Shown here piece by piece: positions 4,297 through 55,490 of a stretch of 64,000 nt of DNA. A program made the translations under genes and the position numbers. Source of the stretch: Candidatus Gottesmanbacteria bacterium (GTDB lineage Bacteria > Patescibacteriota > Microgenomatia > UBA10105 > UBA927). A model generated the notes under the pieces. It had not been told where the DNA came from, made no database searches, and was given only the letters and a program-made list of their open reading frames with translations. How positions within the stretch are numbered: position 1 is the first letter of the stretch; the number at the start of each line of letters is the position of its first letter. The stretch spans positions 447,054-511,053 of the forward strand of contig OY969569.1 in NCBI GenBank assembly GCA_963701185.1, in the 5' to 3' direction.

Positions 4297-4324
4297 TGTT
4301 TTAATGTTTTAAAACATTAAAACA
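4297..4324. repeat. 28-bp palindrome copy 2, 13 nt upstream of the ATP-grasp start and 21 nt downstream of the recombinase stop
   Basis: Identical to copy 1. Confidence 0.9.
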
Positions 4325-5301: not shown

Positions 5302-6180
5302 ATGAAACTCGGTATCAAGATTGCCCCAGGAAACGCGTGGCAACGCGACATTGAGGCTACTCACCCCGCAATGGTCGAAATCTGGTATAACGCAGGCCGT
5401 CCGGATGATTACAACGAGATGTTTTCCTATCTGGCAGACAAAAATATTGATGTGGGGCTCCATTTCTGGGGACAGGATGAAAACGGTATGCTGGCCGCAA
5501 CGAGTTCACCGCTGATGCGGCGCACAATTGATATTGCGGCCCGTCATACGTGCGTGTACGTTAATATTCATCCGGATTTGTATGCGCATCTTGCCGTGAA
5601 CCTTGAGACATTACGGATCCGCGTTGCAGCTCCGGAAGAAGATCACAACAAGGTAAATGAACGGTTTTTGAGGAACGTTGAGAGCCTGCGTGCCTATGCG
5701 GATACAAAACATGTTGTTTTGACCGTCGAGACGGTCCCGATGCGCGATACGCCAAACTGGAAACCACACCGCGACCGGACACGCGTTATCGATACTCACC
5801 AGATGCCTATGGACATTCTCGTTGATCTTTCGCGCCGCGGTGTTTCAATCGCCAATGATTTCAGCCACACCGCCTGTAACAGGATTTCGGAAAATCCTAA
5901 CGCCATTTGGAAGTATTTGTTCAAAACGACTAAGGATTTGGCACCGGCCACCCGGCTTATCCATTTGGGATTTATCGTCCCGCCGTACAACGGCGTTGAT
6001 TTCCATGACTGCCTGGACAATCCGGTTTTGGATACACCGGATGCAATTCCAAACAGAAATCAGATGGTCGAACTCCTGAAGCTTTTCAAAAACCGGGACG
6101 ACGTGTGGATACTGGTGGAACCCAAAGAAAACCACGTCAAAAACTATACTTTAGCTCAAAAAATCATAGCCTCGAGTTAG
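5302..6180 (+). CDS. hypothetical protein (possibly TIM-barrel-like)
   Basis: 292-aa ORF; no secure family assignment. Confidence 0.4.
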   Translation: MKLGIKIAPGNAWQRDIEATHPAMVEIWYNAGRPDDYNEMFSYLADKNIDVGLHFWGQDENGMLAATSSPLMRRTIDIAARHTCVYVNIHPDLYAHLAVNLETLRIRVAAPEEDHNKVNERFLRNVESLRAYADTKHVVLTVETVPMRDTPNWKPHRDRTRVIDTHQMPMDILVDLSRRGVSIANDFSHTACNRISENPNAIWKYLFKTTKDLAPATRLIHLGFIVPPYNGVDFHDCLDNPVLDTPDAIPNRNQMVELLKLFKNRDDVWILVEPKENHVKNYTLAQKIIASS

Positions 6181-6655
6181 CCTCAGCTACAAGCCCCTGT
6201 ATTGCCCTAGGACGGCCGGGGTTACCCGGGCATGCCCAGTTAGTCGTCCATATCTGCAGCCCGTCAGACAGTTTGGATTATTACGACGCGAAAAGAGAGA
6301 ATCATAAGCTCTACGGAACGATAGATGGATCATGAATAATAAATCATGAATACTAAAACGGAAAGCACAAGGTAAACAGCTTGCTCACGGATATACCCGT
6401 GCTGGACGTCGCAAAAGTATTATTGTGCGACTACATAGGTGAAGATTCCCTACAGGCGGCAACCGACCAAAACACTCCGGGGCAATTCCGCCAAAAGGCA
6501 TATCCTCAAGGGGGCATAAGCAGCCTCAAAAACCCCTCCCTCGGGGGTTGACGGCAACCAGTCTCTTGTTATCGTTTGTACGAATATACAGCCACAAACA
6601 CACAATATCCATCGGCAGCACCCTTATCCTCTGCGGACCCCGGTTGCCTCACAGA

Positions 6656-7000
6656 TAGCGCATTAATATGCTCCAAATAAACACTTTTGAAGCTAAGGAT
6701 ATACGATTCCGAAGATTCTATCAGATCGGGAAACGTCGCAATTTAGCGCCATATAACACTCCAAAGTGCTAATATTAGCTTCGCGTAAGCACTCCCTGCC
6801 TGCGAGCAGTAATAAAAAGGGCTTTCGGGTTTTTTTAGCACCTCCTAATGCTCCAAACTCGAGGTTTCGAGGCGAGATTCCGGCTTTTTAGCCGGAAGCG
6901 CTATCGGGGATTTAGAGGGTCCTAACAATCCAAACGACCAAAAATACGCACACATTGTGTACTCAAAGAAGCGAGTGCGCCCTCCTTCGTCCCGATCCGA
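6656..7000. repeat. Four tandem degenerate ~88-bp units, each with a conserved 22-nt head (TAGCRCNNNNTAANNCTCCAAA) and a variable hairpin-containing body
   Basis: Heads at 6656, 6744, 6836 and 6913: TAGCGCATTAATATGCTCCAAA / TAGCGCCATATAACACTCCAAA / TAGCACCTCCTAATGCTCCAAA / TAGAGGGTCCTAACAATCCAAA. Bodies contain hairpins such as TTCCGGCT-TTTT-AGCCGGAA. Confidence 0.6.
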
Positions 7001-7013
7001 TCGGGATTACGGC
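6987..7013. repeat. Hairpin CGTCCCGATC-CGA-TCGGGATTACGG (TCCCGATC/GATCGGGA family)
   Basis: Perfect stem read directly; related copies at 7067..7090 and 26707..26733. Confidence 0.7.
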
Positions 7014-7066
7014 GGGCACTGTGAAATGAAGCTATGGTATTCCGTGAAAAGAATTATCCACCACTA

Positions 7067-7090
7067 CGTCCCGATCGAATCGGGACTTCG
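7067..7090. repeat. Hairpin CGTCCCGATCGAATCGGGAC (same family)
   Basis: Read directly. Confidence 0.7.
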
Positions 7091-7159
7091 CGGTGCAGGC
7101 ACAAATTATAGGCCTATAAGTATTAACTGTATCAAACTATACTACCCCACTTCCCCGCC

Positions 7160-8005
7160 TTACCGGCCCCCCCGCCAGGAAGTTGCAATGAACGTAATAA
7201 TAAAAACAATTGCGGCAACGGCAAAAAATTCAATCAGGGTTTTTTTATACAGCTTTTCAACCAGATACTGCTGGGCAGCACCGACACTGCTGTAGAACGC
7301 GGTCGTGAAAAGAAGGGCCAACAGCGTTGTTTTCGTCGGCAAAAAGGAAAATATCCATACAAGCTGGGTTAAAAACACGGCAATGGCAATACTCATGTGC
7401 CACACTCGCCTCCCCAATGTTTCCGAGAGCTCCATAGACCAGACTGATTGCAGTGCAAGAATGAAACTGATTGGTCCGATGATCGCCATCGCGACCGGCG
7501 CAATAAAGCGGAATGCCAATACCGTCTGTACCAGTAAAAAATACGTGAGAAGCGTCAATAAGAAACCGACGGAATGTGCGGCCCGAAGGAGGGCGATGGT
7601 CCGGTCTGCGGCAACCGTATAGATATTTTCAGTCAAAAGAAGAGCATACATGCCGATACCGTACAAAAGCGCAACAGGCAAGCGGGTCAGCCAGCGCACA
7701 GGCAGCAAAAAATAAAAGAGCGCAACGGCTGTCGTAAATAACGTCGGCAACGTGAGAATCGTGAGCCATTCCATACCCCGTATTTCTTTCCGGAACACCA
7801 ATGCGGATAACCCGGCGGCCGCTATGGATAATAAAAAGACCAATGGATACCGCGATTCTCCTGTTACCAGTTGGATGAGCAGTAATCCGACGGTAAGGGC
7901 GCCGGTTGCACCGACAAATTGCTGGCGCTTGGTCAGTGAAAAATGCCGCTCCCGACGGACAAACCATCTCTTCACCGCTTCATTCATTTTTGTCGTCATA
8001 TTCAC
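7160..8005 (-). CDS. polytopic membrane protein, unknown function
   Basis: 281 aa with at least 8 hydrophobic helices. Confidence 0.5.
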   Translation of the reverse strand: MNMTTKMNEAVKRWFVRRERHFSLTKRQQFVGATGALTVGLLLIQLVTGESRYPLVFLLSIAAAGLSALVFRKEIRGMEWLTILTLPTLFTTAVALFYFLLPVRWLTRLPVALLYGIGMYALLLTENIYTVAADRTIALLRAAHSVGFLLTLLTYFLLVQTVLAFRFIAPVAMAIIGPISFILALQSVWSMELSETLGRRVWHMSIAIAVFLTQLVWIFSFLPTKTTLLALLFTTAFYSSVGAAQQYLVEKLYKKTLIEFFAVAAIVFIITFIATSWRGGR

Positions 8006-10612: not shown

Positions 10613-11830
10613 CTATAGCCATTTCCGCTTTAGTTCAAGAAAAGAATTCCTCCTGATACTTTCTCTAATGTCATCTACGAGCCGGTGGATAAAATGAAGA
10701 TTATGAATCGTTGCCAGCCGATATCCCAAAAGTTCTTTGACGTGAAACAGGTGATGGATGTAGGCGCGGGTAAAATGCGTGCATGTGTAGCATGCGCAGC
10801 CCTTCTCAACCGGCCCGAAATCTTCCGCAAAACCCGCTTTCGTAATATCAATAGCCCCCCGCTTTTCATACAACACACCGACTCGGGCCAATCGGGTCGG
10901 CTGGACGCAGTCAAAGGTATCCATACCGTGTTCCACAAGCGTAAAAATATCATCAACCTCCCCCACTCCCAGAAGATGGCGGGGTTTATCCTCCGGCAAA
11001 AGCGGCGTCACCCATGCCAAAACATTTTCCATTTCCTTTTTGCTTTCCCCTACCGATACGCCGCCGATGGCAATTCCGTCAAAATCCATGAAGCTGATTA
11101 CCTTCGCCGACTCCTTCCGCAAATCCTCAAACACGCTCCCTTGAATAGACCCGTACAAAGCGGTCGACGAATTTAACAAAATAGTTTTTTTGTTTTTTAA
11201 TTTTTTGTGTTCTTCCAGACTTCGTTTTGCCCATGCGTGGGTCCGATCCAAAGATTTCCGTGCTTTTTCGTGAGTTACCCCGTACGGCGTGCAGTCGTCA
11301 AACGCGATATGCATATCGCTCCCCAACTCCTCCTGCCACTTCATCGAAGATTCCGGGGTAAATATATGTTTCGTCCCGTCCCAATGGGATTGAAATTCAA
11401 CGCCGTCATCGGTAATTTTTACCATTTTTTTATTGTCATTCCCGACCTGATCGGGAATCCGCGTTTCTCCAAAAACCAATACCGATTCCCGCCTTCGCGG
11501 GAATGACATAGAAGAACGCCCGAGTGAAAAAACCTGGAACCCTCCGCTGTCCGTCATGATCGGCCGGTTCCAGTTCATAAATTTGTGCAAACCGCCGGCT
11601 TTTTTGATAACCTCAATCTCCGGCCGCAGATACATATGATACGTATTGACGAAAAACAGTTGAACACCAATTGTATTCAATTCTTCGGGTGTGAGGCTTT
11701 TGACCGTCGCCTGTGTGCCCACCGGCACAAACGCCGGGGTTTGGATATCGCCATGCGCCGTATGGATTACCCCCACCCGCGCCCGTGTTTTCTTATCTTT
11801 GTGAATCTGTTTGAAGCTAAATTCTCCCAT
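10613..11830 (-). CDS. tgt: queuine tRNA-ribosyltransferase
   Basis: [42 protein letters not shown]...HHLF. Carries an in-frame ~30-aa insert encoded by a palindromic element. Confidence 0.9.
   Translation of the reverse strand: [405 protein letters not shown]
11434..11508. repeat. 75-bp element with terminal inverted repeats TGTCATTCCCG...CGGGAATGACA and two internal hairpins, inserted in-frame in tgt
   Basis: Hairpins ATTCCCGA-CCTG-ATCGGGAAT and GATTCCCGC-CTTC-GCGGGAAT. Encodes the extra segment [31 protein letters not shown]. Confidence 0.75.
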
Positions 11831-12200: not shown

Positions 12201-12491
12201 TTACGCGGGGAGGAGTTTGGTTTTGAATGCGTTGAATTCGCGGCGGGTGACAGAGTCTGTTTCCAGATCAATCACGCGGCGGCGGATATCGGAAACATCT
12301 GACGCCACATCATCAACCTTGTCTTCTACTCTCTTGAGATCTTCAGCTTTGGCTAGTTTCTTCACACCATCTTTTGTCGCGTAATCTTCCAGCGTTTTAC
12401 TTATCACAGTTGCAATTTGCGTCACAGCATCATCAATATCCCCTTTTGTTGCTGGTGCCTGAAGGTTTCTCTTTTTCATATCTTGTATCAA
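12201..12491 (-). CDS. hypothetical charged/coiled-coil small protein
   Basis: 96 aa, Lys/Asp/Glu-rich. Its C-terminal 32 codons are duplicated in the chimeric ORF at 12634..12915. Confidence 0.4.
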   Translation of the reverse strand: MIQDMKKRNLQAPATKGDIDDAVTQIATVISKTLEDYATKDGVKKLAKAEDLKRVEDKVDDVASDVSDIRRRVIDLETDSVTRREFNAFKTKLLPA

Positions 12492-12576: not shown

Positions 12577-12604
12577 TGTTTTAATGTTTTAAAACATTAA
12601 AACA
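12577..12604. repeat. 28-bp palindrome copy 3, followed by the conserved flank GGACATACGAGGAGTATCCTTGTAGGATG
   Basis: Read directly. Confidence 0.9.
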
Positions 12605-12633: not shown

Positions 12634-12915
12634 CTATGCGGGGAGAACTTTTGTTTTGAATTCTTTGAATTCGCGGCGGGTGACGGTGTCGGTTTCGAGA
12701 TCTATCACGCGCCGGCGGATATCGGAAACGTCGCCTGCGTTCCAACGGGCACAAACGCCGGGGTCTTGATGACCCCGTGAGCCGTATGTATCTCCCCCAC
12801 CCGCGCCTTTGTCTTTTTGTCTCTGTGAATCTGCCTGAAGCTGAAATCCCGCATACAGGCTATTGTAGCACGCTTTTAATTGACAAAGCAGAGAGAGAGA
12901 GGTAGATTTAAACAT
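12634..12915 (-). pseudogene. Chimeric ORF from a diverged partial duplication: tgt 5' region (11703..11893) fused to the 3' end of the 12201..12491 gene
   Basis: 12633-12730 is ~85% identical by eye to 12203-12300. 12727-12915 matches 11704-11893 including the TTGACA promoter. The ORF ends ...[32 protein letters not shown] vs the original ...[32 protein letters not shown]. Confidence 0.6.
12880..12908 (+). promoter_or_regulatory. Duplicated promoter TTGACA-N17-TAGATT, 7 nt upstream of the 12916 ORF
   Basis: Paralogous to 11856..11886. Confidence 0.35.
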
Positions 12916-13322: not shown

Positions 13323-13350
13323 TGTTTTAATGTTTTAAAACATTAAAACA
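13323..13350. repeat. 28-bp palindrome copy 4, followed by the related flank TCACCTGCAAGGATACTCCTCGTAGGACG
   Basis: Read directly. Confidence 0.9.
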
Positions 13351-14112: not shown

Positions 14113-15843
14113 TTACCCCACCCCGTGTTCTATTTTTAATCTCGATATCTTTCTTGCGACGTCTGCCTCCGCTACACCGAAGGACGGAAGCAGGCGCTCG
14201 ACGATCGCGAGAGCCGCCTCAAACTCCGGCTGGATGACGGCGTCCACCCCCAGGGACTTGAGATATTTCTGGTCCTCCTCGTGATGCGTCCGGCAGATAA
14301 TTTTGATGCGGCGGTTAAGAGTTTGGGCATGGGCAATCACCAACTCCTGCGTATGGCGGTCCGGAATGGCGATAATAATTGCTTTCGCGTAGTCAACCTG
14401 CGCGTAATCCAACACGTTTTTGTCCGCCGGATCGCCGTACACGACCGGAATACCTTTGGCCGTCAGCGCCGCAATGGCCGCATTATTGTAATCAACAACC
14501 ACAAACGGAATCTCTGCCATGGCAAGGGCGCGGCCGATATACTTCCCCACCCTTCCATAGCCGCACAGAACGACGTGGTCCCGGTACGGAAGTTCCTCTT
14601 TGACGTCCGGCTCCTCGCGGGACGTACGGAACACCTTCGGCAGATATTTGTCCATCCATCCGTGCATGCCGTAATACAAACTGTGTCCCTGGGAAATAAA
14701 CGGGGTAGAGACCAGAATCGTAAGAAATGTCAGGGCGATAAGAAACGTATACTGATCCCGGGTCAGGGCGCCCAAGACCCAGCCCTGGCTTGCGATAATA
14801 AAACCGAACTCACTCATTTGGACAAGTCCAACCGCAACAAGAAAAGAGGTTTTCCGGTGATATCCCATGAAACGCATGAGTCCCATGACCACAAACCATT
14901 TGACGGCAAGAATAAAAACGGTGAGAATGGCAAGCGTACCGGCTGCCCGCAGCAGGTATGCCCCCGGTATCCCCATGCCGATCGTGACAAAAAACACCAC
15001 GACAAAGAGATCCCGAAGCGGCCGTACTTCGGCAAAAATCGCATGATTCTCACTTGTTTCAGAAATGAGGAGTCCCGCCACAAACGCACCGAGGGCAGCC
15101 GACAACCCCAACACGTACGTGGTCATTGCGGACAAAAAAACCAGACCCACGGTCACCAGCATAAATATCTCGCGGTTCCCCAGTGTCGCCACTTTCCCCA
15201 GCGCCTTGGGCACAACCTTTTTCCCCAGAAAAATAATAAGAGCAAGCGCGACTGCCGCCTTGAGGAATCCCAAAGAGAGTGACGCGGCTAAACTCATTGC
15301 GCTAATATCCCCGGTATGCGCGGCTCCGATGACGGACGGCAGGATAATCATAATCGGAACGACGGCTAAATCCTGGAGAACCGACCAGCCGGTCATCATT
15401 TCACCCGGCACGGTATCCAGTTCTCCCCGCTCGGACAAAACCTTCACAATAACGGCGGTCGAAGAAAGCGATCCGGCAATAGCAATAACGAGAGACGCCA
15501 GAAACGGGAATCCGAGAAACATGCTAAATAATAAAAACAGGAAGATACACAAAAGGATCTGGGTAATGGCGGCCCACGGCAGAGTCCCCATGAGTTTCTT
15601 CAGCCGGTGAAAGGAAAACTCGACGCCCAGAGTAAAAAGAAGAAGGGTCACGCCGACATCACCGATCCCTTTCAAAAATGCGGCATCGGTGGCACGCGGA
15701 AACAGATTGCCAAAAAGGATCCCCGCGGCAATATATCCCAAAAGCGTGGGTTGTTTAAGCATTTTTGCAATTGCCCCGCCTAAAATCGCGGCGCTAAACA
15801 CAAGAAGCAAGGTAGAGATGAGTGACAGGCTATGTGCGTCCAT
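14113..15843 (-). CDS. monovalent cation:proton antiporter-2 (Kef-type) with C-terminal TrkA-N/RCK domain
   Basis: About 12 TM helices plus VVLCGYGRVGKYIGRAL...VVVDYN, a Rossmann NAD-binding motif. Confidence 0.8.
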   Translation of the reverse strand: MDAHSLSLISTLLLVFSAAILGGAIAKMLKQPTLLGYIAAGILFGNLFPRATDAAFLKGIGDVGVTLLLFTLGVEFSFHRLKKLMGTLPWAAITQILLCIFLFLLFSMFLGFPFLASLVIAIAGSLSSTAVIVKVLSERGELDTVPGEMMTGWSVLQDLAVVPIMIILPSVIGAAHTGDISAMSLAASLSLGFLKAAVALALIIFLGKKVVPKALGKVATLGNREIFMLVTVGLVFLSAMTTYVLGLSAALGAFVAGLLISETSENHAIFAEVRPLRDLFVVVFFVTIGMGIPGAYLLRAAGTLAILTVFILAVKWFVVMGLMRFMGYHRKTSFLVAVGLVQMSEFGFIIASQGWVLGALTRDQYTFLIALTFLTILVSTPFISQGHSLYYGMHGWMDKYLPKVFRTSREEPDVKEELPYRDHVVLCGYGRVGKYIGRALAMAEIPFVVVDYNNAAIAALTAKGIPVVYGDPADKNVLDYAQVDYAKAIIIAIPDRHTQELVIAHAQTLNRRIKIICRTHHEEDQKYLKSLGVDAVIQPEFEAALAIVERLLPSFGVAEADVARKISRLKIEHGVG

Positions 15844-16534
15844 GGATGATCCTATTCATATCATCCGGTATCGGCGCTTCTATTGCAAGCGTTGCCCCGC
15901 TTGCAGGGTTTGTGCACGTAAGCTTCCATGCGTGCAGCATGACGCGCGGCGCCCAAACGCGGTCGTCACGCGCGGTTTTCCGGCCCGCGTAGAGATAATC
16001 CCCGAGAATCGGGTGATTGATATATTTGAGGTGTACGCGGATCTGATGCGTGCGTCCCGACTCCGGATATAACTCAACAAAACTAAAAGCATCGTCCCCC
16101 GTACCCCATGTCTCACGTACCTTGTATTTTGTTATTGACTCTTTTCCTCCCGGCACAATGCCAAACCGCTCCCTATTCCACGGAAGCCGGCCCACGGGCG
16201 CATTAATTTCCCCGGTGTCGGGAACCAATTTTCCGTGCGCGATTGCAAGATACGTTTTATGGATAAGCCTTTCTTTAAACTGCCGCTGAAGCTCGGTAAA
16301 CGCCTCCTGTGTTTTGGCAATTAAAAGTATTCCTGATGTTTCTTTATCAATGCGGTGAACAATACCAGAGCGAATTGCAAAGTCAGATTCCCGCATACGC
16401 GGGAATGACAAACGAGAGTCCGCCCAGTCCTGCACCGTCTCCCCTTTGACCGACTCGGCGCGGTTGACGACTATTCCGGGAGGTTTATTGATGGCGAGCA
16501 TCACGTCATCTTCGAAGAGGATTGGGATATCCAT
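15830..16534 (-). CDS. RluA-family pseudouridine synthase
   Basis: GIVHRIDKETSGILLIAK, TYLAIAHG, GRTHQIRVHL...HPILGD. Carries an in-frame copy of the GATTCCCGC palindromic element. Confidence 0.85.
   Translation of the reverse strand: MDIPILFEDDVMLAINKPPGIVVNRAESVKGETVQDWADSRLSFPRMRESDFAIRSGIVHRIDKETSGILLIAKTQEAFTELQRQFKERLIHKTYLAIAHGKLVPDTGEINAPVGRLPWNRERFGIVPGGKESITKYKVRETWGTGDDAFSFVELYPESGRTHQIRVHLKYINHPILGDYLYAGRKTARDDRVWAPRVMLHAWKLTCTNPASGATLAIEAPIPDDMNRIIHGRT
16386..16418. repeat. GATTCCCGC-ATAC-GCGGGAATGACAAACGAGAG element inside the RluA-family CDS
   Basis: Encodes ...SRLSFPRMRESDFA...; shares the SFPR(R/M)RES peptide with the tgt insert. Confidence 0.75.
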
Positions 16535-25432: not shown

Positions 25433-25480
25433 TCTGGTATTCGCGCCTGAGATTTGGTACGCTGGATACATGAAAAAAAT

Positions 25481-26698
25481 ATGATCAAAGCACAAACACT
25501 GAAAGGATTCAGGGATTTTTTGCCCGAAACCGCCATCGCGCGGCAAATGGTGACGGGAAAAATCAGGAACGTGTTTGAGCGGTACGGATTTGATCCCTTA
25601 GAAACGCCGGCGCTGGAATACGCTGAAACGCTCACGGGAAAATACGGCGGCGAGGCGGATAAATTACTCTACCTATTCCGCGATAACGGGAAACGGAAAG
25701 TGGGACTCCGGTATGACCAGACAGTTCCCCTCTCGCGGGTTATAGCCCAATATCCGCTCCTTCCCAAACCGTTCAAGCGGTATCAAATCCAACCCGTGTG
25801 GCGCGCGGAAAATACGCAGAAGGGCAGATTCCGCGAGTTTCTGCAATGCGACATCGATACCGTCGGCTCTGACTCTCCTCTTGCCGACGCGGAAATTATT
25901 GACTGTTCGCTCAATACCTTTAAACAACTCGGGTTTCCAGGTATCACCATGGATGTCAATGACCGCACGATATTCGACGACCTTAAACTAACCAAGAAAG
26001 AAATAACCATCATTGATAAACTCGATAAAATCGGCACGGATGCGGTTATTGAGGATCTGGAAGCGGGCGGAAGGAAGGACGCAAAAAAATTATTTGAATC
26101 ACTCAAGCGGGCAAAGCCGACCGAGCGCATGTGGAAAATTTTTGAGGCACTCAAACGTCTGGGGTATAAAGAAGACGCGGACTTCCGGTTCAACCGGTTT
26201 TTAGCCAGAGGTTTAGATTACTACACAAGTACGATATTCGAGTTAAAGGCAGGGGCCTATACCAGCGGATCATTGGCGGGCGGCGGACGGTACGATACAT
26301 TGATCGGACAATTTTCCGGCCAAAATTTGCCGGCCGTAGGCATTGCGTTCGGGTTTGACCGCATCATGGAAGCGATGGAGGAATTTAAATTACTCCCCCC
26401 GCAACCCACTGCCACGCAGATATTGGTTACTATTTTCTCGCCCCAACAGCTTGGCGCCGCCCTTGAACTCACGACGAAATTCCGCCGCGGCGGACTCAAT
26501 ACCGAGGTCTACGGCGACACAGAGGCGAAACTCGACAAACAGCTCAAATATGCCGATAAAAAGGGAATTCCGTATGTGGTTATTGCAGGTCCGGATGAGA
26601 TAGCACGGGATGTCATAAAACTGAAAACCATGGAAACGAAAAAACAGGAGGAACTGTCTGTCGATGAGGTTGTCGATAAGTTGACGAAGGCCTCGTAA
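25481..26698 (+). CDS. hisS: histidyl-tRNA synthetase
   Basis: Start at MIKAQTLKGFRDFLPE; class II motifs; FRRGG anticodon-binding region. Confidence 0.9.
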   Translation: MIKAQTLKGFRDFLPETAIARQMVTGKIRNVFERYGFDPLETPALEYAETLTGKYGGEADKLLYLFRDNGKRKVGLRYDQTVPLSRVIAQYPLLPKPFKRYQIQPVWRAENTQKGRFREFLQCDIDTVGSDSPLADAEIIDCSLNTFKQLGFPGITMDVNDRTIFDDLKLTKKEITIIDKLDKIGTDAVIEDLEAGGRKDAKKLFESLKRAKPTERMWKIFEALKRLGYKEDADFRFNRFLARGLDYYTSTIFELKAGAYTSGSLAGGGRYDTLIGQFSGQNLPAVGIAFGFDRIMEAMEEFKLLPPQPTATQILVTIFSPQQLGAALELTTKFRRGGLNTEVYGDTEAKLDKQLKYADKKGIPYVVIAGPDEIARDVIKLKTMETKKQEELSVDEVVDKLTKAS

Positions 26699-26706
26699 TA
26701 AGAATA

Positions 26707-26733
26707 CCAATCCCGATCTAATCGGGATGATAT
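26707..26733. repeat. Hairpin CAATCCCGATCTAATCGGGATGATATG (TCCCGATC family), intergenic hisS / EamA
   Basis: Read directly. Confidence 0.7.
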
Positions 26734-45626: not shown

Positions 45627-48094
<2,468 letters not shown>

Positions 48095-55449: not shown

Positions 55450-55490
55450 CCAATACCGATTCCCGCCTGCGCGGGAATGACAAACGAAAG
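55450..55490. repeat. CCAATACCGATTCCCGC-CTGC-GCGGGAATGACAAACGAAAG element filling the rseP-frr intergenic space
   Basis: Read directly; same family as 11476..11508 and 16386..16418. Confidence 0.75.

Follow-up and report, generated by a model that had tools for sequence, protein, structure and literature searches.

How does a bacterial housekeeping gene come to carry, with its reading frame intact, a palindrome whose relatives lie in unrelated genes and in intergenic DNA? We address this question for a 75-nt element inside tgt, the gene for tRNA-guanine transglycosylase (Tgt), in a stretch of DNA from Candidatus Gottesmanbacteria, a group within the candidate phyla radiation (CPR; Microgenomates). 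The stretch, hereafter the window, is 64 kb long, represents about 6% of a genome of roughly 1 Mb, and holds 75 open reading frames (ORFs). A previous sequence-only reading described the element as a palindrome resembling a miniature inverted-repeat transposable element (MITE), inserted in frame. The observation of an in-frame palindromic element in tgt is confirmed, and the insertion reading is supported. The segment is very likely a small non-autonomous palindromic repeat, a head-to-head (HH) dimer of the CGTC/dRS3/NTS superfamily, that has inserted into tgt of a Candidatus Gottesmanbacteria lineage.

The element is built as a head-to-head dimer in which two hairpin units enclose a 24-nt spacer; the orientation of the family consensus corresponds to the plus strand, antisense to tgt. 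The sequence quoted earlier is present exactly, as are the 11-bp terminal inverted repeats (TIRs) and the two perfect hairpins. The TIRs, TGTCATTCCCG and CGGGAATGACA, occupy the outer 11 nt and are 100% complementary. The left hairpin (11438-11458), ATTCCCGA-CCTGA-TCGGGAAT, has a perfect 8-bp stem and a 5-nt loop; the right hairpin (11485-11504), ATTCCCGC-CTTC-GCGGGAAT, has a perfect 8-bp stem and a 4-nt loop. Both halves are inverted copies of a single unit of about 25 nt, TGTCAT-YCCCG-loop-CGGGR-ATC. Four instances of ATTCCCG..CGGGAAT are found in the window versus 0.02 expected from dinucleotide-preserving shuffles, and the right-end motif GATTCCCGC-N4-GCGGGAATGACA occurs three times versus 0.00 expected from shuffles. 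An Rfam scan of the window at gathering thresholds returns one tRNA only, with no match at the element. The element is free of stops in three of its six frames, and the frame in use gives 24 residues. As it is read in one of these frames and its length divides by three, it is carried through the ORF and would be translated. An uninterrupted ORF of 405 residues spans it, and the peptide reading proposed earlier is correct.

The host gene is otherwise a conventional tgt. Its product (P0001, a 100% match) carries PF01702, aligns with the TGT structures of Z. mobilis at E = 1e-102 (HMMER), and has homologues named as Candidatus Gottesmanbacteria. It keeps the motifs TDSGG, AFDDC, and GVGE..DD together with the CxCxxC...H zinc site. 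In the HMMER alignment, residues 13-104 correspond to positions 21-112 of the Z. mobilis chain and residues 136-399 to positions 114-372; between these blocks, 31 residues of the window protein face 1 residue of the Z. mobilis enzyme. The sequence-only reading had put canonical Tgt at about 30 fewer residues, with E. coli as its example, and the value measured on Z. mobilis agrees. The segment has no counterpart in this unrelated lineage.

Comparison with relatives supports insertion. The closest Tgt orthologues (P0004, P0005, and P0017) lack the segment and read FSLG-A-KI(T/S)DDG across the site, as had been anticipated for some relatives, and many further homologues read FSLA-RKASLV-KITDDG. 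One homologue, P0002, carries the insert of the window, and P0003 and P0029 have inserts related to it in the same position. In the DNA, codons that adjoin each other in the empty alleles L004, L006, and L009 are separated by TGTCAT...ATGACA in the filled alleles (the window and loci L002, L008, and L272). The insert has the same position and orientation in all four filled alleles, with similar junction codons (GRSS..., ...K-x-V-KIT), and the spacer of the window element is identical to that of the L002 copy (assembly GCA_001779455.1) at 23 of 24 nt. An assembly artefact was discounted on account of the same insert in the independent assemblies L001-L003. In L008, which encodes P0003, the two hairpin types have changed ends, although the spacer points the same way along tgt as that of the window; the arrangement resembles the outcome of a spacer inversion between the inner arms.

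The insertion site is one of three length-variable hot spots of Tgt in this clade: among 111 homologues, the segment that follows FSLG measures 5-80 residues. The P0029 protein has a second composite copy, at hot spot 2. In the window, hot spot 2 (11170-11220, Tgt residues ~205-222) holds a 14-residue stretch where P0002 and P0005 have almost nothing, and other homologues carry palindrome-type peptides there, such as SLRAKRSNL...SRNDTD in P0019 and 25 residues in P0029.

An AlphaFold model of the window Tgt, built on 33 homologues, has a mean pLDDT of 79.7 and a pTM of 0.82. Foldseek aligns it to Z. mobilis TGT (1ozm, 1q2r) with TM-scores of 0.86 (query) and 0.93 (target) at 2.1-2.2 Å rmsd. 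The model is confident outside residues 106-134, where pLDDT drops below 50 and secondary structure is absent. The prediction for the insert is a disordered loop at the surface of a TGT fold that is normal elsewhere; in the model, the proposed surface-loop placement without a break in the frame is borne out.

Hairpin units of the same kind occur elsewhere in the window. The sequence-only reading placed related copies in an RluA-family gene and in the gap between rseP and frr; both exist, as single units of 25-33 nt and not as the full 75-nt element. The intergenic unit (55450-55482) and the right end of the tgt element agree at 33 of 34 nt. Orthologues of the RluA-family gene in L002, L006, and L009 have a different, unit-free sequence at the corresponding variable spot. 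Another locus, L257, is 81% identical in DNA to window positions 25473-26146 and carries a solo unit (677-709 of the locus) 10 nt upstream of a hisS-like start; the orthologous site in the window (~25473) is without it, a second case of presence versus absence. A flank, ATAAAAAAAT, is common to the L257 unit and the tgt copy.

The composite element belongs to a family. A metagenome scan that used the right unit plus the CCAAnACC stub as query, with the left hairpin unconstrained, found 22 loci; with the window copy and one copy from L272, these yield 18 distinct composite copies of 69-83 nt with unrelated flanks. Dimers account for 16 of the 23 matches of the scan (17 of 24 with the window copy). 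The consensus of the 18 copies is TGTCATCCCCGACCTGATCGGGGATC, about 25 nt, and CCAAAACCGATTCCCGCCTTCGCGGGAATGACA; the CCAAnACC part of the spacer is kept in all 18, and the left flank is usually T-rich. The element is thus far from confined to tgt, with further units in the window and 18 distinct loci, metagenomes included. Together, the different flanks of the 18 copies and the presence/absence case at L257 point to mobility of the family. In six loci (L250, L253, L255, L259, L264, and L265), intergenic composite copies stop 8-15 nt short of an opposite-strand start codon (…CAT-A/T-rich-TGTCAT); the element often lies in a 5' leader and may affect translation initiation.

The hairpin unit itself is far more widespread. 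An exact search for TGTCATTCCCG-N4-9-CGGGAATC in species-representative genomes gave at least 120 matches in many phyla, including several CPR lineages and a metagenome-assembled genome of Nanoarchaeota; by our own estimate, about 26 chance matches are expected for the whole 596-Gb collection, of which the 120 or more cover a part. Viral contigs of IMG/VR also gave at least 120 matches (L130-L209 and further loci). Among the viral matches listed, one contig has 6 copies of the unit and four loci also have Ssn-like ORFs, of which more below. The loop is strongly oriented relative to the tag: among the matches listed across phyla, the forms GAAA, GAAG, GCAG, and GTAG total 93 versus at most 1 for their complements, which argues for common descent of the units and against convergence. 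BLAST against plasmid records places the unit in Neisseria, Azospirillum, Legionella, sphingomonads, and Cupriavidus. A comparable breadth of NTS-like repeats has already been published (PMC11893778).

Passage through coding sequence is not peculiar to tgt. Composite copies are read through without stops in several ORFs identified by Pfam (listed in the table). The LepA with inserts has homologues named as Patescibacteria, the closest of which (83-85% identity) are empty at the first site; other LepA homologues carry palindrome-type peptides of different sequence at both insertion sites, such as CHPGPRAGIHEKDWIPDQARNDK and one of 26 residues. On plasmid pMC4 of Sphingopyxis indica (L275), ileS is annotated as an intact coding sequence and contains, in frame, an NTS-type doublet that is read as RHPRESGDP...LDSRFRGND (RHPRESGDPERASANPTLDSRFRGND). 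Sphingopyxis is an alphaproteobacterium, and the in-frame behaviour is therefore not confined to CPR.

Which known repeats does the element resemble? One of the closest likenesses is to the CGTC-tagged repetitive extragenic palindromic (REP) superfamily, which takes in dRS3 and the Rickettsia palindromic elements (RPEs) RPE-4 and RPE-6 (Di Nocera, De Gregorio, Rocco 2013, PMC3733652). These REPs have 8-9-bp stems and 4-5-nt loops, occur mostly as HH dimers with the tags outside and conserved spacers, encode 20-30 aa where units and dimers fall within known genes, and were found to have no dedicated transposase and no tyrosine transposase at their flanks (PMC3733652). The tgt element has 8-bp stems, loops of 4 and 5 nt, and tags at both outer ends; the family shares with CGTC REPs the stem and loop sizes, a tetranucleotide tag at one end of the unit, HH dimers with conserved spacers, intragenic copies, and the lack of a flanking tyrosine transposase. 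It differs in its tag, TGTC, in being a heterodimer of different hairpin types, and in its CPR/Patescibacteria host, which lies outside the five phyla listed in PMC3733652.

The Neisseria repeats provide a second comparison. The dRS3 repeat is a 20-bp palindrome, ATTCCC-N8-GGGAAT (PMC1797815), and three of the four window units (11485-11504, 16387-16406, and 55459-55478) fit this definition exactly; the left unit (11438-11458), with N9, departs from it. One NIME unit has the same dRS3-spacer-dRS3 layout. The Neisseria Transformation Sequence (NTS) is a 28-nt sequence, CGTCATTCCCGCGMAVGCGGGAATCYRG (PMC11893778), which the window matches at 25 of 28 positions at 11481-11508, 24 of 28 in the unit of the RluA-family gene, and 25 of 28 in the unit at 55450-55482. 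The first base (T in place of C), the YRG flank on the 3' side, and one loop position account for the mismatches; the palindrome is intact. All three NTS-like units keep GTC before the palindrome and C after it; in Neisseria, the nuclease SsnA needs the three bases before the palindrome for cleavage and the C after it for binding (PMC11893778). Unlike the intergenic arrays of Neisseria, the tgt copy lies in coding sequence and would be translated.

The sequence-only reading also drew an analogy with Rickettsia, which proves closer than first thought, given that RPE-4 and RPE-6 have been placed in the same CGTC superfamily (PMC3733652). According to PMC10969869, RPEs (Ogata et al. 2000/2002) are palindromic repeats that keep the reading frame of the various unrelated housekeeping genes they enter and fall where the protein fold can accommodate them, and the classical RPE-1 is given as about 100-150 bp and as restricted to Rickettsia. 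The likeness lies in an in-frame palindromic insert with the fold kept, as indicated by the intact ORF, the disordered loop of the model, and the LepA, PheS, DinB, and ArgRS copies; unlike RPE-1, the tgt element is 75 nt long and comes from another phylum. This relation is drawn from the description of RPEs and the assignment of RPE-4 and RPE-6 in PMC3733652. In another group, the REPINs, the tag is GTAG and the associated genes encode RAYT (IS200/IS605-type Y1) transposases (PMC3733652, PMC11893778). With REPINs the element shares an inverted doublet that can fold into one long hairpin, a non-autonomous nature, and the lack of a target-site duplication. It departs from them in that its units lack the GTAG tag, the family has no known RAYT association, and no tyrosine-transposase-like neighbour recurs at the approximately 120 unit-bearing loci listed.

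Other origins were considered and dropped: a CRISPR repeat, as the partners are inverted and form no array; an attC site or group II intron target, as the supporting features are absent; and excision of the insert at the RNA or protein level, as nothing observed points to it and a cut mRNA would not be religated.

How might such an element move? NTS-type repeats flank genes for single-domain GIY-YIG proteins of about 95 aa and of the cd10448 type, termed Ssn (Chenal et al. 2025, PMC11893778); Ssn binds the hairpin as single-stranded DNA (ssDNA) and cuts a few nt upstream, and the authors liken NTS-ssnA-NTS to an insertion sequence (IS) (PMC11893778). We clustered the ORFs around about 120 unit-bearing loci from many phyla in search of a recurrent transposase. 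None was found beside the units at these loci, where only generic families such as kinases and ABC transporters recur; the sole recurrent specific neighbour is a small GIY-YIG gene. An Ssn-like ORF lies within a few kb in 9 of about 240 unit-bearing genome and viral loci listed, and in L026 it sits between two inverted units. Within the composite family, on the metagenomic locus L252, some 950 nt separate a composite copy from an Ssn-like gene that has hairpin units on both sides; the same contig encodes a LepA with Patescibacteria relatives (P0343). Ssn-like homologues with identities of 62-83% are present in Gottesmanbacteria, Paceibacterota, Doudnabacteria, Berkelbacteria, and Nomurabacteria. 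The L252 gene (341-628) requires a frameshift in an A-run to join its N-terminus, MKNYYVYILASKK, to the remainder, and this reflects either a pseudogene or a homopolymer sequencing error. Other Gottesmanbacteria resemble the Neisseria NTS-Ssn system in having Ssn-like genes flanked by related hairpins. The gene for the Ssn-like P0146 on L273 is arranged as unit(+)-gene-unit(-); in assembly GCA_016194575.1 the gene lies between TGTCATTCCGGGCTTGACCCGGAATC and GATCCCAGCGTTCGCTGGGATGACA, just upstream of adk.

On the favoured reading, a repeat copy inserted into tgt with the frame kept, adding approximately 25-31 residues that would be translated. They fall at a Tgt position that tolerates very variable insertions in this clade, and the catalytic and zinc-site motifs are intact. 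The insert is most likely a tolerated selfish insertion, not a functional domain. Spread would probably depend on an enzyme acting in trans that recognises the hairpins as ssDNA; the best candidate is an Ssn-type single-domain GIY-YIG nuclease, the gene for which has a hairpin-flanked, IS-like arrangement in other Gottesmanbacteria. Filled alleles may also pass from one lineage to another by short-patch homologous recombination.

Several findings weigh against an inserted repeat of this superfamily mobilised in this way. The three NTS-like units, with 3, 4, and 3 mismatches, fall outside the limit of at most 1 mismatch used in the published search (PMC11893778). The broader SRM pattern, HGTCWY-N0-2-YYVSBRH-N0-5-WNVSBRG-N0-2-RNCYNB (PMC11893778), matches none of the four window units. 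The tag is TGTC in all four window units and in the composite copies (one has TGTT), so that only GTC is shared with CGTC REPs. A tblastn search with three Ssn-like proteins against the window and the syntenic loci L001-L009 gave trivial repeat matches only and no GIY-YIG gene; in this the window differs from the Neisseria NTS-Ssn system, as it does in failing the formal definitions, and the link of NTS repeats and SsnA to transformation is that of Neisseria alone. Transposition by Ssn is itself a hypothesis in PMC11893778 and has never been demonstrated. Translation of the insert is predicted from the ORF. Finally, a purely neutral old insertion does not predict the pattern of conservation. 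Between the window and L002, the element codons are 96.2% identical, third positions included, whereas the rest of tgt is 72.8% identical overall and 52.3% at third codon positions; a sharp maximum of identity coincides with the element and the adjoining 22 nt on its 3' side. In L008 and L272, the copies at this site have diverged much further and are 60% identical to that of the window.

The phylogeny of the host protein adds to the puzzle. In a neighbour-joining tree of 60 Tgt proteins, calculated with the hot-spot columns removed and without support values, the Tgts with NTS-type inserts (P0001, P0002, P0003, and P0029) are not monophyletic, and the nearest neighbour of each is an empty-site protein; a simple old neutral insertion does not explain this either. 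The 96% identity of tgt copies across genomes with saturated synonymous sites suggests ongoing homogenisation or nucleotide-level selection and not neutral decay, and the scattered distribution of filled Tgts, at one codon position and in one orientation, suggests the same. Possible sources of both features are short-tract recombination, repeated site-specific insertion, gene conversion, and nucleotide-level selection.

The last of these leads to the alternative that survives best, in which selection acts on the nucleic acid, either on an mRNA structure that tunes tgt translation or stability or on a DNA site for a hairpin nuclease that controls recombination or transformation, and the protein loop is a by-product. 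The conservation contrast speaks for it. In addition, the left stem is paired in 100% of cells across the family, with compensatory double changes at 3 of 8 pairs and no one-sided changes among family copies; the element as RNA is predicted to form a stable long hairpin (-36.9 kcal/mol, z = -4.08); and NTS repeats with SsnA modulate transformation in Neisseria (PMC11893778). We nevertheless consider this alternative unlikely: most close orthologues do without the element, the copies of L008 and L272 have diverged at the very same site, the occurrence of the family in many unrelated genes and in intergenic DNA argues against a role specific to tgt, and high identity is also obtainable by recent transfer or gene conversion.

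A classical MITE, a deletion derivative of an IS with a DDE transposase that is mobilised through the 11-bp TIRs, is most improbable. Part of the earlier MITE-like label stands, in that the TIRs are perfect, the element is small, and multiple dispersed copies exist. The TIRs, however, are simply the outer arms of two inverted hairpin units that also occur alone; no direct repeat of 2-9 nt marks a target-site duplication at 17 of the 18 composite copies, and the 18th has a single 3-nt flanking match, at chance level. The survey of the approximately 120 loci listed, with the small GIY-YIG gene as the only specific neighbour and no recurrent transposase, likewise speaks against a MITE. That the segment is an ancestral, lineage-specific Tgt loop, palindromic by accident, is scarcely credible: the three very length-variable loop positions of the clade's Tgt would allow it, but the same nucleotide sequence recurs in unrelated genes and intergenic DNA, the nearest relatives are without the segment, and the hairpin unit is common to many phyla.

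The window has other features of note. A second, unrelated AT-rich palindrome, TGTTTTAATGTTTTAAAACATTAAAACA, with a 12-bp stem, has 4 copies, all between ORFs, and probably represents a further family of REPs or of terminator-like sequences. A pair of hairpins that resemble each other, GTCCCGATCGAATCGGGAC and ATCCCGATCTAATCGGGAT (7068-7086 and 26710-26728), have 8-bp stems and 3-nt loops and lie outside long ORFs. The only SRM match in the window, AGTCATTCACGGCAAATACCGGAATCTTG at 47551-47579 (+), is an imperfect hairpin, with 0.17 expected per shuffle, and is probably due to chance. Two small minus-strand ORFs (12204-12491 and 12637-12915) share a near-identical C-terminus of about 30 aa that includes (S/T)VTRREF..FKTK.LPA, which suggests a local duplication. 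A region of about 1 kb (6178-7162) has no ORF of 90 aa or more and no Rfam match at gathering thresholds.

Table. Positions of the tgt element, its host gene, and related or neighbouring repeats in the window, with in-frame copies in genes of other loci.
Feature	Position	Strand	Description
Composite element, 75 nt	11434..11508	+	Direct sequence reading; TIRs and hairpins; alignment with 17 other copies
Left hairpin unit TGTCATTCCCGACCTGATCGGGAATC	11434..11459	+	8-bp stem, 5-nt loop, TGTC tag outside
Spacer CGCGTTTCTCCAAAAACCAATACC	11460..11483	+	Coding strand of tgt reads ...SVLVFGET... here
Right hairpin unit	11484..11508	-	TGTCATTCCCGCGAAGGCGGGAATC on the minus strand; exact dRS3 fit (ATTCCC-N8-GGGAAT)
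tgt (queuine/preQ1 tRNA-guanine transglycosylase)	10613..11830	-	Intact 405-aa ORF; PF01702, TGT structure matches
Extra 31-residue Tgt segment	11426..11518	-	Codons 105-135; the 75-nt element plus a few junction codons
Solo hairpin unit TGTCATTCCCGCGTATGCGGGAATC	16386..16410	-	Inside RluA-family pseudouridine synthase gene 15830..16534; encodes SRLSFPRMRESD
Solo hairpin unit with CCAATACC spacer stub	55450..55482	-	Intergenic; 9 nt past frr stop, 15 nt before rseP-like start
AT-rich palindrome TGTTTTAATGTTTTAAAACATTAAAACA	291-318, 4297-4324, 12577-12604, 13323-13350		Between ORFs
In-frame copy in LepA			GTP_EFTU domain spans insert; second insert further on
In-frame copy in PheS			Class II core
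In-frame copy in DinB			IMS domain
In-frame copy in methyltransferase			
In-frame copy in ArgRS			DALR domain
Copy in PMT_2-type glycosyltransferase			

Some of this was known: a REP dimer translated inside a housekeeping gene was reported in 2013 (PMC3733652), RPEs, the best-known example of such insertion, with ten families, date from 2000, and the link between hairpin and nuclease from 2025. New here are the host group, Gottesmanbacteria/Patescibacteria; this composite family; its recurrence in tgt, lepA, pheS, dinB, and argS; and the puzzle of conservation and non-monophyly. A literature search for MITE or palindromic insertions in CPR/Patescibacteria, incomplete in its coverage, found nothing relevant. 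We propose, tentatively and as a possibility only, that the Patescibacteria dimers form an active Ssn-linked system that repeatedly targets the same loop-coding sites (tgt, lepA, pheS, argS), or is copied there by short-patch recombination, and so remodels protein surfaces across the phylum in the manner of RPEs.

The finding extends protein-coding palindromes from Rickettsia and a few Proteobacteria to CPR/Patescibacteria, by way of a hairpin superfamily recently tied to Ssn ssDNA nucleases. It also accounts for some of the striking variation in length among CPR housekeeping proteins, where close homologues range over 351-489 aa for Tgt and 592-758 aa for LepA, and it carries a warning for annotation, as peptide motifs such as IPDQVGND and that of the extra Tgt segment derive from repeats. 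The filled and empty tgt alleles of close relatives constitute a natural experiment on possible mobilisation by Ssn and on the neutrality of the insert.

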